64,000 bases of DNA from an uncultured Gammaproteobacteria bacterium (GTDB taxonomy: Bacteria; Patescibacteriota; Microgenomatia; UBA8517), in NCBI GenBank assembly GCA_964395115.1, contig CAYMZX010000006.1, positions 26,041-90,040 of the forward strand. Reading direction: 5' to 3'. Position 1 is the stretch's first letter, and the number at the start of each line of letters is the position of its first letter. The position numbers and the translations under genes are program-made. Below the pieces are notes generated by a model. The model ran no database searches, was not told where the DNA came from, and was given only the letters and a program-made list of their open reading frames with translations. This document shows, in pieces, positions 29,420 through 38,313 of this stretch.

Positions 29420-30493
29420 ATGAGTTTTACCCAAACAGTCAACGCCCTCGAAGAAGAAATACGAAAAACTCCTTACAATAAGGCAACGGAACATCATATT
29501 GGCAAACTCCGAGCGAGATTAGCCCGAATTAAAGAAAAACAACTGGAAAAAGAAAATAGGTCGGTGGGGGGCGGAACTGGATTTGCCGTCAAAAAACAAG
29601 GCGATGCCACTGTTGTTTTAATCGGACCTCCTTCGGTCGGAAAATCAACTCTTTTAAACCGTCTGACTAATGCTAAATCAAAAGTGGCACCATATATTTT
29701 TTCTACCGTCTCGGTTATACCGGGAATGCTTCTTTACCGAAATGCCCATATCCAGATTTTGGATCTTCCTGGTCTGATTGAGGGAGCCCGTCAGGGTAAA
29801 GGATTGGGGAAAGAGGTTATTTCGGTAGCCCGCGTTGCTGACCTACTTGTTATTATGTCTGAAATTGGAAAGGAGGACTCGAGTAAGACTATTTTGAACG
29901 AATTAGAGAAAGCCGGCATTCGTATAAACAAGGAAAGACCTAAGATTAAAATTCAAAAAAAAATTTCCGGAGGAATAGTCATCTGTTCCAATACCAAACA
30001 ATTATTATCCAAGGAGACAATTAGAGATGTTGTTTCGGAATTTGGAATTAAAAATGCTACAGTAACACTGGAGGAAAATATTACATTAGATCAATTACTG
30101 GACTGTCTCTCTCAAAGCACGGTTTATTTGCCTGCGATTTTTGTTGTCAACAAAGCCGATAAGATAAAAAAACGAACCCAACTTACTTATGATGATATTC
30201 TATATATTAGTGCAAAAGACGGCTCTGGTCTCGAACAGTTAAAAGAAAAAATTTGGGAAAAATTAAAACTAGTGGAATTATATTTGATCAAGCCCGGCGA
30301 ACCCATGGGAAGACATACACCAATTATTATGAAAAAAGGCGAAACTCTTTACGATATAACCTTGAAAATAGGGTCTGAATTTGCTAGGAGTAAAAAGCTA
30401 GCTAAAATCTGGGGCGGTTCTGCTAGTTTTCCTGGGCAGTCGGTACCTTTAACAAGGGTAGTTGAACAAGATCTGATGGTTATGTTTATATGA
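29420..30493 (+). CDS. DRG/Rbg1-like OBG-family GTPase with a C-terminal TGS domain
   Basis: DRG-type N-terminus (NKATEHHIGKLRARLARIK), G1 GPPSVGKST, G3 DLPGL, G4 NKAD, and a TGS-like C-terminus. Confidence 0.75.
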   Translation: MSFTQTVNALEEEIRKTPYNKATEHHIGKLRARLARIKEKQLEKENRSVGGGTGFAVKKQGDATVVLIGPPSVGKSTLLNRLTNAKSKVAPYIFSTVSVIPGMLLYRNAHIQILDLPGLIEGARQGKGLGKEVISVARVADLLVIMSEIGKEDSSKTILNELEKAGIRINKERPKIKIQKKISGGIVICSNTKQLLSKETIRDVVSEFGIKNATVTLEENITLDQLLDCLSQSTVYLPAIFVVNKADKIKKRTQLTYDDILYISAKDGSGLEQLKEKIWEKLKLVELYLIKPGEPMGRHTPIIMKKGETLYDITLKIGSEFARSKKLAKIWGGSASFPGQSVPLTRVVEQDLMVMFI

Positions 30494-30504
30494 AGCAGTG
30501 TTTT

Positions 30505-30513
30505 TGATATAAT
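30505..30513 (+). promoter_or_regulatory. Extended -10 element TGaTATAAT about 12 nt upstream of the tRNA array
   Basis: Sequence TGATATAAT at 30505-30513; the first tRNA starts at 30525. Confidence 0.35.
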
Positions 30514-30524
30514 CTACACGTACT

Positions 30525-30608
30525 GCAGACGTGGCGGAATGGTAGACGCGTACGGTTCAGGGCCGTATGAGGTTTACCCTCGTAGAGGTTCAAATCCTCT
30601 CGTCTGCA
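30525..30608 (+). tRNA. tRNA-Leu (CAG), type II
   Basis: Acceptor GCAGACG/CGTCTGC+A, anticodon stem TACGG/CCGTA with loop TTCAGGG, T-loop TTCAAAT. Confidence 0.85.
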
Positions 30609-30609
30609 C

Positions 30610-30685
30610 TCGCAGCTCGTGAGAGATCGGATTTGAAAGTGCCAAGTAAGGAAAACGCTTTGCACACAAATCCTCTCGTCTGCAC
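30610..30685 (+). repeat. 57-nt insert (30610-30666) followed by an exact 19-nt direct repeat (30667-30685) of the tRNA-Leu(CAG) 3' end (30591-30609)
   Basis: Direct string identity caaatcctctcgtctgcac at both positions. Confidence 0.85.
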
Positions 30686-30692
30686 CCGACAA

Positions 30693-30775
30693 GCACTCGT
30701 GGCGGAATTGGCATACGCGATAGCTTGAGGAGCTATGCCCGTAAGGGCGTGGGAGTTCGAGTCTCCCCGAGTGCA
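30693..30775 (+). tRNA. tRNA-Leu (GAG), type II
   Basis: Acceptor GCACTCG/CGAGTGC+A, anticodon stem ATAGC/GCTAT with loop TTGAGGA. Confidence 0.85.
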
Positions 30776-30776
30776 C

Positions 30777-30858
30777 TCACATACGTTCGTGCTCACGTGG
30801 ATGCTCGATAGTGCCAAGTAAGGTAAGAGGCTTTGCACACGAGTCTCCCCGAGTGCAC
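30777..30858 (+). repeat. 63-nt insert (30777-30839), related to the previous insert, followed by an exact 19-nt direct repeat (30840-30858) of the tRNA-Leu(GAG) 3' end (30758-30776)
   Basis: Identity cgagtctccccgagtgcac at both positions. The inserts share ctc.ca..cg.tcgtg at the start and agtgccaagtaagg.aa...gctttgcacac at the end. Confidence 0.85.
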
Positions 30859-30868
30859 AAAAACAGTT

Positions 30869-31101: not shown

Positions 31102-31175
31102 GCCCCCGTAGCTCAATTGGACAGAGCATATCGGTTCTAACGATGCGGTTGAGCGTTCGAGTCGCTCCGGGGGCA
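31102..31175 (+). tRNA. tRNA-Arg (TCT)
   Basis: Acceptor GCCCCCG/CGGGGGC, anticodon loop GTTCTAA, T-loop TTCGAGT. Confidence 0.8.
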
Positions 31176-31179
31176 CTTG

Positions 31180-31226
31180 GGGCCTGTAGCTTAACGGTAG
31201 AGCGATTAACTCTTTAGATTGAAAAT
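31180..31226 (+). pseudogene. Truncated tRNA-like 5' fragment (acceptor + D-arm + anticodon-loop-like CTCTTTA), homologous to the 5' half of the following tRNA-Lys. No 3' half.
   Basis: GGGCCTGTAGCTTAACGGTAGAGCG aligns with GGGCCGCTAGCTCAACGGTAGAGCG. No T-arm or 3' acceptor strand was found downstream. Confidence 0.45.
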
Positions 31227-31317
31227 GGGCCGCTAGCTCAACGGTAGAGCGGCGCCCTCTTAAGGCGACGGTTCCGAGTTCGAATCTCGGGCGGCTCACA
31301 GAAGCCCATTTTCAATC
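31217..31317 (+). repeat. 14-bp perfect inverted repeat GATTGAAAATGGGC / GCCCATTTTCAATC (31217-31230 and 31304-31317) bracketing tRNA-Lys(CTT)
   Basis: Exact reverse complement. The last 4 nt of the left arm are the first 4 nt of the tRNA. Confidence 0.8.
31227..31298 (+). tRNA. tRNA-Lys (CTT). The anticodon stem has one G.A mismatch.
   Basis: Acceptor GGGCCGC/GCGGCTC (one GU pair), D-arm GCTC/GAGC, anticodon loop CTCTTAA, T-arm CCGAG-TTCGAAT-CTCGG. Confidence 0.6.
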
Positions 31318-33522: not shown

Positions 33523-33608
33523 GCCGAGGTGGCGAAATGGTAGACGCGCATGGTTTAGGACCATGTCCACATTAAATGTGGGTGGGGGTTCGAATCCCTT
33601 CCTCGGCA
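33523..33608 (+). tRNA. tRNA-Leu (TAG), type II
   Basis: Acceptor GCCGAGG/CCTCGGC+A, anticodon stem CATGG/CCATG with loop TTTAGGA, T-loop TTCGAAT. Confidence 0.85.
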
Positions 33609-33778
33609 CACGAAAGTATCAGATGGGTATGCGCGAGCCGCGAATGGACGCGCGACGAGCGCATCGTGCGGTGGATTCGGGCAAAATTCAATCCGTTTAT
33701 TCTGCAGTAAGAAGTTCGAGCCGACCTTTTTTGCGATGACTGAAAGTTCATCGCAATTATTTTTTCTGCGCACAATTT
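33609..33778 (+). repeat. 170-bp repeat, copy 1, starting immediately after the tRNA-Leu(TAG) discriminator base
   Basis: Near-identical to 38105-38274 (reverse complement). Its first ~100 nt also occur at 36655-36755. Confidence 0.85.
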
Positions 33779-36537: not shown

Positions 36538-36755
36538 TTCGAGCCGACTTTTTTTGCGATGCCATCAGGACGAGCTAGAAATGGTGCGGCTGTCTGTAGC
36601 GGGCGGCAGCCGCTCCGCTTTGAAATACGTTCGAATTTGAACATATACAGAGCACACGAAAGTATCAGATGGGTATGCGCGAGCCGCGACAGGCCGCGCG
36701 GCGAGCGCATCGTGCGGTGGATTCGGGCAAAATTCAATCCGTTTATCTGAATAAG
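36538..36755 (+). repeat. Permuted copy 2 of the 170-bp repeat: distal segment (36538-36563), ~90 nt unique with palindromes, then proximal 100-nt segment (36655-36755)
   Basis: String matches to copy 1: gttcgagccgac(c)tttttgcgatg and cacgaaagtatcag...caatccgtttat. Confidence 0.75.
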
Positions 36756-36786: not shown

Positions 36787-38313
36787 ATGAAATATATAGC
36801 TTACTGTAGAAAATCAACAGATGAGAAGGAAAAACAAATTCTTTCCATTGATCAGCAAATTTATGAATTAAAGCAGTTTGCGCAAAAAGAGAATTTAGAG
36901 ATAGTTGAGTTTTTGACAGAAGCGCAAACTGCTAAGATTCCAGGCAGAAAAGTATTTTCAAACCTGGTGAAGCTGTTAGAAAATGGATATGCTGACGGAA
37001 TTGTTGCGTGGCATCCAGATAGACTAGCAAGAAATTCAATAGATGGTGGTAAAATTATTTATTTGCTAGATGAAGGAAAATTACAGTCCCTGAAATTTCC
37101 TACTTTCTGGTTTGAAAATACTCCACAGGGGAAATTTATGCTTAATATTGCCTTTGGCCAAGCGAAATACTATGTTGATAATTTAAGCGAAAATGTCAAA
37201 AGAGGTTTGCATTTTAAAGCCAGACAAGGTGAGTGGCCTGGCATGGCTCCATTTGGTTATTTCAACGACAAAAATACCCGTTCCATCAAAATTATGCCTG
37301 AACAAGCTAAACTAGTAGAAACAGTTTTTAATAAATTTGCTGACAACGAATTTTCTTCCTTGAGAGAAATCAGAGACTATTTGTTCAGGCACAGTGTAAA
37401 AAGAAAGGACGACAGGCCACTTCACTACAATCAAATTCGTGATATGTTGACGCGTAATCTGTATTACGGAGTTTTTACTTATGCAGGAGAAACTTACGAG
37501 GGTAAACATGAGCCAATAATCTCCAAGAAATTATTTGACCAAGTTCAAGAAGTCATAGCTAGTAAATACAACTCTAAGCCCCAAAAACACGAATTTGATT
37601 TTACTGGTTTTATTAAATGCAAAAATTGCGATTCTTTTATCACTGCAGAACGCCACAAAAAATATTACAAAAAGACTGACAGACACGCAGAATACACTTA
37701 TTACCGTTGTGTCAAAAAGAAAGGGTTTTGTGATCAGCCATATGTCAGAGAGAAAGAGGTTGAATCGCAATTAAGGGAACTTGTGGACAGCGTTGCGCTG
37801 TCTGAGGCGTGGGCTAGGAAAATGTTTGAACTACTTGAAAAAGACGAAATCAGAGAGAAAGGAAAAATCAAGATTGGGCTTGTCCGTCTCACAACTTCCC
37901 TTGAAGTGGTTGAGAAGAAGCTAGACAAACTTCTTGAGTCTTATTTAGAAGAAATTGTTGATACCGAAAGTTATCAAGTCAAAAAGGATCAACTGCTTCA
38001 ACAAAAAATAATTCTCAAAGAGAAAATTGAGGAGATTAAGACCAAAGGAAGTGTTTGGCTCGAACCTATGAGGGAATTTATAAATATGGCCGCTGATGCG
38101 GCCAAAATTGTGCGCAGAAAAAATAATTGCGATGAACTTTCAGTCATCGCAAAAAAGGTCGGCTCGAACTTCTTACTGCAGAATAAACGGATTGAATTTT
38201 GCCCGAATCCACCGCACGATGCGCTCGCCGCGCGGCCTGTCGCGGCTCGCGCATACCCATCTGATACTTTCGTGTGCCGCCAGAGAGATTCGAACTCTCG
38301 ATTTTCTGGTTGA
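36787..38313 (+). CDS. Large serine recombinase (resolvase/invertase catalytic domain + recombinase domain + zinc ribbon); the C-terminal ~70 aa are encoded by repeat copy 3
   Basis: N-terminal YCRKSTDEKEKQ..SIDQQ (catalytic Ser context), DRLARN, and a Cys-rich CKNCDS...YYRCVKKKGFC zinc ribbon. The ORF has no stop until 38313, inside tRNA-Glu. Confidence 0.85.
   Translation: MKYIAYCRKSTDEKEKQILSIDQQIYELKQFAQKENLEIVEFLTEAQTAKIPGRKVFSNLVKLLENGYADGIVAWHPDRLARNSIDGGKIIYLLDEGKLQSLKFPTFWFENTPQGKFMLNIAFGQAKYYVDNLSENVKRGLHFKARQGEWPGMAPFGYFNDKNTRSIKIMPEQAKLVETVFNKFADNEFSSLREIRDYLFRHSVKRKDDRPLHYNQIRDMLTRNLYYGVFTYAGETYEGKHEPIISKKLFDQVQEVIASKYNSKPQKHEFDFTGFIKCKNCDSFITAERHKKYYKKTDRHAEYTYYRCVKKKGFCDQPYVREKEVESQLRELVDSVALSEAWARKMFELLEKDEIREKGKIKIGLVRLTTSLEVVEKKLDKLLESYLEEIVDTESYQVKKDQLLQQKIILKEKIEEIKTKGSVWLEPMREFINMAADAAKIVRRKNNCDELSVIAKKVGSNFLLQNKRIEFCPNPPHDALAARPVAARAYPSDTFVCRQRDSNSRFSG
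38105..38274 (-). repeat. 170-bp repeat, copy 3 (inverted relative to copies 1 and 2), starting immediately after the tRNA-Glu discriminator base
   Basis: Reverse complement of copy 1 with a few substitutions. Its GC hairpin is identical to that of copy 2. Confidence 0.85.

Follow-up and report, generated by a model that had tools for sequence, protein, structure and literature searches.

A family of short hairpin elements at tRNA 3′ ends in Microgenomates-like Patescibacteria, with arms matched to the adjacent tRNA gene

Results

Two tRNA-Leu genes followed by an exact copy of their own 3′ end

The stretch of DNA analysed here (the window, 64,000 nucleotides) carries a tRNA array in which ARAGORN and Rfam place a tRNA-Leu(CAG) gene at 30525-30608/9 and a tRNA-Leu(GAG) gene at 30693-30775/6. 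CCA is absent from both genes. The flanking genes code for an OBG/DRG-type GTPase, a methyltransferase and Lon. Named homologues assign the window to the Patescibacteria, close to the Woesebacteria/Microgenomates type, and the closest homologues of the GTPase are only about 60% identical.

Both tRNA-Leu genes are followed by the same layout. In unit A, the 19 nt at 30591-30609 (CAAATCCTCTCGTCTGCAC) recur exactly at 30667-30685, separated by a 57-nt insert (30610-30666), and in unit B the 19 nt at 30758-30776 (CGAGTCTCCCCGAGTGCAC) recur exactly at 30840-30858 after a 63-nt insert (30777-30839). The repeats span the tRNA from C56 in the T-loop to C74, one base beyond the discriminator, that is, tRNA positions 56-74. 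The first copy is referred to as X1 and the second as X2, and the two are identical (19/19) in both units. AGTGCCAAGTAAGG and GCTTTGCACA are exactly common to both inserts. A preliminary description of this DNA had reported these layouts and the homology of the inserts at both ends; its coordinates are right and both observations are confirmed. It had overlooked that the 5′ part of each insert, termed X′, is an imperfect antisense of the 19 nt of the same tRNA, which the present analysis adds. The features of the two units are as follows.

30485..30513, +, promoter-like site preceding the tRNA array, TTTATA-17-TATAAT with TG (from a consensus scan only)
30525..30609, +, tRNA-Leu(CAG) through C74, CCA not encoded
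30591..30609, +, X1-A, first repeat copy, tRNA positions 56-74
30610..30618, +, linker A (TCGCAGCTC), family pattern TCR...CTC
30619..30635, +, X′-A, left arm, imperfect antisense of X (pairing GGATTTG:CAAATCC and GAGAG:CTCTC)
30636..30638, +, internal-loop triplet AAA of unit A (ATA in most family members)
30639..30666, +, apical hairpin H-A (GTGCCAAGTAAGG AAAAC GCTTTGCAC) and junction A
30667..30685, +, X2-A, exact second copy of positions 56-74, right hairpin arm
30693..30776, +, tRNA-Leu(GAG) through C74
30758..30776, +, X1-B, tRNA positions 56-74
30777..30788, +, linker B (TCACATACGTTC)
30789..30807, +, X′-B, 19-nt left arm, 14/19 identical to the perfect complement of X-B
30808..30810, +, internal-loop triplet ATA of unit B
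30811..30839, +, apical hairpin H-B (GTGCCAAGTAAGG TAAGAG GCTTTGCAC) and junction A
30840..30858, +, X2-B, exact second copy of positions 56-74

The terminal 19-mers of the other 13 tRNAs in the window reach only 8-12/19 in their best ungapped match within 200 nt downstream, so the repeats are not due to chance. The region is identical in L005-L007, three JGI assemblies made independently from the same organism, which shows that the layout is real and no assembly artefact; throughout the 918-nt tRNA array, the sole difference is a single-T indel in the tRNA-Leu(CAG) variable loop.

Since X′ is antisense to X2 and an apical hairpin (GUGCC...GCAC) lies between them, the three segments fold into a single long hairpin in both units. 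Its arms follow the tRNA to which they are attached, with GGAUUUG/CAAAUCC pairing in unit A and GCUCG/CGAGU in unit B. X′-A reads GGATTTG where the sense strand of the T-arm has AGAGGTTCA, and the arm is thus truly antisense.

Further features were seen elsewhere in the array. A decayed copy of the first ~25 nt of tRNA-Lys(CTT) (22/25) is located within 31180-31226, 22 nt upstream of that gene, and a perfect 14-bp inverted repeat (GATTGAAAATGGGC/GCCCATTTTCAATC; 31217-31230/31304-31317) brackets the gene, including its first 4 nt. Positions 31128-31239, spanning tRNA-Arg(TCT) and the pseudo-copy of the tRNA-Lys 5′ end, gave a weak full-length match to the Rfam family YrlA (Y RNA-like; 27.4 bits, compared to a gathering score of 69), which most likely reflects tRNA-likeness only.

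The window inserts belong to a family in related Patescibacteria

The census covered 85 related Patescibacteria loci. An alignment-based scan contributed 80 further loci, and a single-protein scan of genome contigs yielded one useful relative. Every tRNA in these loci was examined by script for a downstream copy of its 3′ end. Among the 504 tRNAs of all loci the longest shared substring was mostly 9 nt or shorter, with a separate spike at exactly 19. The family repeats correspond to the last 19 nt of the tRNA call, placed 45-66 nt downstream. The layout was found at 15 of 381 distinct tRNA genes and concerns tRNA-Leu-CAG, Leu-GAG, Leu-UAA, Lys, Pro and Gly-GCC. The same architecture occurs on six tRNA species in at least eight distant lineages. 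By tRNA, it was carried by 9 of 111 Leu genes and by none of the Arg-UCG (0/54), Val (0/36) and Phe (0/33) genes. Outside the window the copies are distributed as follows.

L033, L035 and L036: tRNA-Leu-CAG
L036: also tRNA-Lys
L048: tRNA-Leu-UAA
L053: tRNA-Lys
L055: tRNA-Leu-CAG
L084: tRNA-Leu-UAA and tRNA-Pro
L091: tRNA-Leu-UAA and tRNA-Pro
L066: tRNA-Leu-GAG and tRNA-Gly-GCC (variant subfamily)

The window inserts therefore belong to a family of non-coding hairpin elements, 45-66 nt in length, of Microgenomates-like Patescibacteria, which we call the H-type family. All are positioned directly 3′ of tRNA position 74, with the anatomy tRNA(1-74), linker TCR...CTC, X′, AUA, GUGCC...GCAC hairpin, A or GG, and X2. 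The family consensus reads TCR...(A)CTC, GTG...X′, (G)ATA, GTGCCAAGTAAGG...GCAC, A or GG, X2. The left boundary of the repeat lies at 55/56 in 15 of 15 copies and the right boundary at 74/75; the exceptions on the right are L048 (+5 nt), four copies with one extra matching base and the tandem in L066. The repeat is 19 nt long in 14 of 15 copies, one of its two copies doubling as the right hairpin arm, and X2 matches X1 exactly in 13 of 14 H-type copies.

A covariance model, R1, was built from the alignment A4 of the family (see below). Run over 588 kb, it matched these copies only, all of them at tRNA 3′ ends, to which the H motif is likewise confined apart from one match in L046 in the antisense strand of tRNA genes. 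The exact motif GTGCCAAGTAAGG N3-10 GCTTTGCAC had no match in genome, metagenome and viral collections; in this exact form the motif is too narrowly tied to the window species, and its contig is missing from these collections. Rfam 15 returned matches for the tRNAs alone and none over the inserts, even at E-values up to 10, apart from a chance match of 11 bits. The layout is not described in the literature that we searched, where the nearest work concerns group I introns in tRNAs of Patescibacteria. Hence, a ~60-nt tRNA-adjacent hairpin family in CPR bacteria apparently has not been described so far.

Several candidate identities were rejected. Against an intron (group I or other) speak the small size of the insert and the intact tRNAs called by ARAGORN and Rfam; no Rfam match points to a known self-cleaving ribozyme, and an intrinsic terminator lacks its U tract. 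X′ is no sense copy of tRNA 5′ strands, given that it is antisense. The apical hairpin is unconserved or fits poorly when regarded as a D-arm-like structure or a K-turn, and the peptides of a mini-ORF behind the SD-like UAAGG loop are not conserved.

The hairpin is maintained by compensatory changes

The same fold was obtained for all family copies. The structure was tested on A4, a MAFFT alignment made from sequence only and fitted to no structure, with a 26-pair model. In this model 76.7% of the cells were paired, compared to 34-49% with slid partners. Changes on both sides were observed at 19 of the 26 pairs, and the covariation score was 0.372 (shuffle mean, 0.163). The observed percentage of paired cells, the both-sided pairs and cells, and the covariation score were not reached in any of 500 shuffles. 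The base pairs are thus maintained by compensatory change, as in a structured RNA or ssDNA element.

The arms are preferentially matched to their own tRNA. The mean duplex energy of X′ was −16.3 kcal/mol with the cognate X and −10.2 kcal/mol with non-cognate ones, and the cognate X was the top-ranked partner in 7 of 12 cases. All 13 copies tested have Watson-Crick pairs at tRNA positions 56-59 and 62. A G.U pair is frequent at position 60, and interruptions of the stem are concentrated at 60-61, 63-66 and 70-71. These recurrent mismatch positions suggest a selected shape, which we count against the reading as an insertion element that is developed below. As a test for which strand folds, G.T and A.C counts in the stem were compared (20 versus 13, p = 0.3).

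Other tRNA-end hairpins in the arrays of relatives

The arrays of the relatives contain further hairpins that are built from tRNA ends. A second family of small elements is characterised by the mini-hairpin AGCAWAGCTTG, in which an exact copy of tRNA positions 1-20/21 (or a 9-11-nt end copy) is followed by the hairpin and an antisense stretch. It is located upstream of the tRNA, occasionally downstream, and mirrors the H-type family at the 3′ end. Its copies were found at the following positions.

L080:523-596
L067:4745-4830
L091:1815-1901
L066:3812-3885
L014:3713-3785
L033:1527-1600
L073:2774-2806
L048:2005-2045

A Y-shaped structured trailer (z = −3.6) follows tRNA-Leu(CAG) at L014:5207-5292 and L094:1741-1835. 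Its closing stem, GCAGACAAGC/GCTTATCTGC, terminates with 8 nt copied from the 3′ end of the tRNA (ATCTGCAC), and a similar sequence is present after X2 in L033. A third hairpin type (CCCGCCTGC...GCTATCGC...GCGAT...GCGGGCAGG) occurs at L056:5539-5616, where a 17-nt repeat made up of tRNA positions 63-74 and 5 nt of the trailer flanks it, and in L041 upstream of position 809, where it adjoins a 15-nt copy of a D-arm segment. Finally, a stable hairpin (z = −4.3) lies between tRNA-Val and tRNA-Phe at L014:5516-5577. On the 5′ side this hairpin reproduces the 9 nt with which tRNA-Phe begins (GCCGAGATA), and on the 3′ side it is similar to the acceptor 3′ strand and discriminator of the same tRNA.

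Patchy distribution and intragenomic similarity

The syntenic relatives L009 and L013 contain both tRNA-Leu genes without inserts, with a gap of 1 nt between the genes in L013. Consequently, the inserts are later additions to two pre-existing genes. This comparison of orthologous loci had been proposed in the preliminary description, and it overturns the tandem duplication of a tRNA, insert and repeat unit considered there, as the relatives have both genes in the same place and insert-free; this form of duplication is already refuted. More broadly, a local tandem duplication of the unit, or of the tRNA followed by internal decay, could have been kept uniform by gene conversion. The window units are adjacent, their apical hairpins are 90% identical, and tandem amplification is known in L066. 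Nevertheless, we regard such an origin as extremely improbable: Leu(CAG) and Leu(GAG) are separate orthologous genes that are adjacent and insert-free in many relatives, the same element is present on unlinked tRNAs (Lys, Pro, Gly), and X′ is antisense to the tRNA and no degenerate sense copy, reading GGATTTG where the sense strand has AGAGGTTCA.

Over the tree of the host GTPase the bearers are dispersed, with mutual identities of 53-65%, and every bearer has closer relatives whose fetched locus shows no element. The cores of the elements are most alike inside one genome, even on different tRNAs. This holds for the hairpins of window units A and B (90%), for the linkers of L033 Leu and L036 Lys (90%) and of L084 Pro and L084 Leu-UAA (82%), and for the L066 pair, which has a distinctive hairpin in common. 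Across genomes, cores on the same tRNA are 77% (Pro) and 71% (Leu-UAA) similar, resulting in a mosaic pattern. One copy, at Gly-GCC in L084, is decayed, with an X2 of 17/19 and a diverged hairpin, and the Leu-GAG copy of L066 is tandemly amplified (X-E-X-E-X plus 14 nt of a third E). The tRNA-Pro genes of L084 and L091 differ at two positions within 56-74; both differences appear in X1 as well as X2, and X′ compensates one of them. That the identity of X2 and X1 tracks changes of the tRNA would also be explicable by selection or concerted evolution.

Within species, no polymorphism between filled and empty sites was observed: the four assemblies of the window organism carry identical elements, and so do the four from the L033 group. 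A search for close relatives with empty sites returned only members of the same species (98% identical) or relatives with at most 75% identity.

The tRNA array of the relatives is otherwise compact, and tRNA order and orientation near the GTPase gene vary widely by lineage. In L009 (1488-2690) and L013 (2423-2734 and 3013-4437), protein genes without a Pfam match (400, 103 and 474 aa) are located between tRNAs of the array.

No larger element or mobilising enzyme found with the family

The preliminary description had pointed out that a partial 3′-end copy next to a tRNA resembles the attL/attR footprint of site-specific integration. This resemblance is supported, and direct repeats that begin in the T-loop and cover the tRNA 3′ end are indeed the classic att footprint. 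It could be explained by a phage or ICE that integrated in each tRNA-Leu and was later reduced to ~60 bp, and a larger example is available in a relative: a ~740-bp insertion after tRNA-Lys (L042:1325-2156), bounded by a ~35-nt imperfect copy of the tRNA 3′ part and containing one 209-aa ORF without Pfam match, looks like an ordinary att-type footprint. For the H-type elements, such a scar is highly improbable. Independent deletions would not yield the same linker, X′ and hairpin at 15 places on six tRNA species, and the repeat starts at 56 in 15 of 15 copies and ends at 74 or a few nt beyond. Furthermore, the content of the insert is conserved in sequence and structure over 15 sites and is not arbitrary. 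A search for full-length elements with the same ends, suggested earlier, gave none in the 85 loci, and the different case of L042 was the only long-range copy of a 19-mer there. In viral contigs, no copy of the element was detected; relaxed scans produced chance matches in coding DNA, with no tRNAs and no R1 matches. With this, the deletion remnant of the preliminary description is largely refuted. Its alternative of a minimal attachment-site unit is close to the data insofar as the ~60-nt unit itself recurs, but neither an integrase nor a parent element was found.

The scan of window ORFs revealed neither a transposase, integrase or reverse transcriptase linked to the element nor a tyrosine integrase, IntI, Cas12, TnpB, IscB or Argonaute; apart from a serine recombinase (see below), the ORFs scanned are housekeeping genes. 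An autonomous transposase-coding relative was found neither in these ORFs nor in the loci.

A large serine recombinase is encoded at 36787-38313 and had been pointed out in the preliminary description. It is unrelated to the inserts, as it has its own inverted repeats of 95-191 nt and its homologues occur in loci without an H-type element. Sites of large serine recombinases have a short (2-bp) crossover and no long direct repeats; the H-type elements show neither an association with the recombinase nor a 2-bp crossover free of long repeats. The 3′ end of the recombinase gene (38105-38295) is repeated twice in inverted orientation, with 191 nt at 95% identity (33588-33778) and 95 nt at 100% (36652-36746), and these copies abut tRNA-Leu(TAG) and tRNA-Glu. 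The repeats may bound an invertible or recombinase-bounded segment of 4.3 kb with HIT, His_Phos and ParB-CE-like genes.

The lack of Cas12, TnpB, IscB and Argonaute among the scanned ORFs also bears on a guide function of the transcript, either as a crRNA- or omega-RNA-like guide or as a pre-miRNA-like hairpin that releases a 19-nt small RNA for a nuclease or Argonaute directed against tRNA genes or elements with tRNA-like att sites. A conserved hairpin directly 5′ of an exact 19-nt target-identical segment, a genomic target preceded by the invariant T-loop GGTT and a stem that forms an imperfect ~19-bp duplex with an apical loop are in line with this idea. However, known omega or tracr RNAs have far longer scaffolds, the guide segment is engaged in pairing with X′, and a self-targeting nuclease guide would be lethal. 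We therefore consider a guide RNA very unlikely.

Discussion

Insertion element or structured trailer

We favour, with a probability of roughly 45%, the reading that each insert is a small non-autonomous insertion element whose target is the tRNA 3′ end and whose arms are matched to that target. This reading accounts for the patchy distribution, the intragenomic likeness across different tRNAs, the decayed and tandem copies, the contrast between an exact X2 and an imperfect X′, and the restriction to tRNA ends. With the 19 nt present on both sides of the insert, the tRNA is left intact, and tRNA-targeting integrative elements likewise preserve their target. Against it stand the facts that no enzyme is tied to the element and that no polymorphism is observed within species; in addition, we know of no mechanism that re-specifies an internal antisense arm.

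For the insertion itself, we infer a mechanism in which the element would home to the segment from the T-loop to the 3′ end by homology or base pairing with the 19 nt, so that the arms of a core moving to another tRNA of the same genome would become matched to the new target. It may be conjectured that a single-stranded linker-X′-H-X2 molecule enters at a nick after position 74, where X2 would replace X1 on the bottom strand and X′ would capture the displaced X1. A more specific version regards X′ as a reprogrammable guide that pairs with positions 56-74 of the tRNA gene, and the family as a nucleic-acid-guided miniature mobile element. The conserved bases 56-59 of the T-loop, paired in all copies, would act as the seed, and the ends of the duplex would set the joining point, so that the length of the 19-nt duplication equals that of the guide. 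Movement could possibly proceed via a processed trailer RNA or folded ssDNA. This version is, in our view, unlikely.

The transcription context bears on the insertion element as well as on its main rival. Leu(CAG) is closely preceded by the promoter-like site, and the array has no called terminator, so both inserts are probably part of a polycistronic pre-tRNA. In the minimum-free-energy fold of each whole unit the 5′ acceptor strand of the tRNA pairs with the distal X2; this prediction suggests that X2 is a real competitor of the true 3′ end, and sequestering the duplicate would be useful. On the insertion-element reading, X′ would zip up the displaced copy X2 in the pre-tRNA, leaving X2 unable to rival the true 3′ end for the tRNA 5′ strands, and the hairpin would be discarded as a spacer.

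According to the main rival, the hairpin would be a functional 3′ trailer RNA selected by the host, a module for pre-tRNA processing or insulation that was spread by duplication; we judge this somewhat unlikely. It might serve, for example, as an endonuclease site freeing the upstream 3′ end, as a fold that prevents misfolding, or as a small RNA or decoy mimicking the 3′ third of the tRNA. Several observations speak for a trailer: the strong covariation and the conserved apical hairpin, the co-transcription from one predicted promoter, the fixation and identity across assemblies of the same species, and the stem interruptions at recurrent positions. Moreover, X2 and X′ follow tRNA changes between lineages (Pro, L084 versus L091), and other hairpins built from tRNA ends exist in these arrays. 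On the other hand, only 15 of 381 tRNA genes carry the hairpin, it is absent from the fetched loci of the bearers' closest relatives, and most lineages manage with these tRNAs and no hairpin. For processing, a hairpin has no need of arms that match the adjacent tRNA exactly, and the decayed and tandem copies as well as the missing Rfam match do not fit either. The preliminary description had held that a conserved structure at every tRNA-Leu locus of the relatives, with no larger element anywhere, would favour a functional trailer. Conservation at the level of structure and the lack of a larger element are indeed found, but most of the relatives' tRNA-Leu loci do not carry the insert, and hence a purely functional trailer is not established. 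The trailer and the insertion element are compatible, since both sets of features would be expected from an insertion whose survival depends on an arm that neutralises the duplicate.

If the elements are mobile, they represent a harmless way of inserting into essential tRNA genes by means of a target-matched ~60-nt hairpin and may point to a homology- or guide-directed insertion activity in CPR bacteria; a guide-directed mechanism, if true, would be categorically new. If they are host RNAs, they constitute a new class of tRNA-linked structured spacer in organisms about whose RNA processing little is known. In both cases, tRNA fragments and att sites can be misannotated because of them, and with the covariance model R1 the H-type family becomes searchable.

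Comparison with known systems

The family partly resembles att footprints, CIMEs, MITEs and folded att sites, while defining features of each are missing. Integrative elements that target tRNA genes reportedly use sublocations such as the T-loop and are flanked by attL/attR repeats. As in these, the H-type elements show an exact direct repeat of the tRNA 3′ end from the T-loop, and the insert supplies a replacement 3′ end. They differ in their size of 45-66 nt, in the lack of a detected integrase or large relatives, and in their fixed start at position 56 (15/15), their antisense arm and their conserved hairpin. CIMEs are cis-mobilisable elements with att sites but without recombination genes, and represent kb-sized deletion derivatives of ICEs. 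They share with the H-type family the organisation as a non-autonomous unit between att-like repeats that presumably depends on a trans factor, whereas the H-type unit is a structured ~60-nt hairpin for which no parent element is known.

Like MITEs and REPINs, which are small palindromic repeats mobilised in trans, the H-type elements are short and non-coding, form hairpins from imperfect inverted arms and occur several times in a genome. However, the H-type arms differ with the neighbouring tRNA and are not conserved throughout the family, the right arm is a direct repeat as well, copies are found only at tRNA 3′ ends, and no cognate transposase or RAYT was seen. A functional external transcribed spacer of a tRNA is known from E. 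coli, 3′ETS-leuZ, which likewise is a structured, co-transcribed RNA directly 3′ of tRNA-Leu in a polycistronic transcript. There is no sequence relation, and known 3′ETS RNAs neither carry a duplicate of the tRNA end nor its antisense.

Folded single-strand attachment sites are exemplified by integron attC and CTX-phi attP. The H-type elements lack the RYYYAAC/GTTRRRY (R″/R′) boxes of attC and an integron or Xer context, their stem copies a segment of a tRNA gene, and single-strand recombination is a conjecture here. Still, they share with these sites an imperfect hairpin with mismatches or extrahelical bases, a stem that mimics the duplex target, and a size similar to that of attC.
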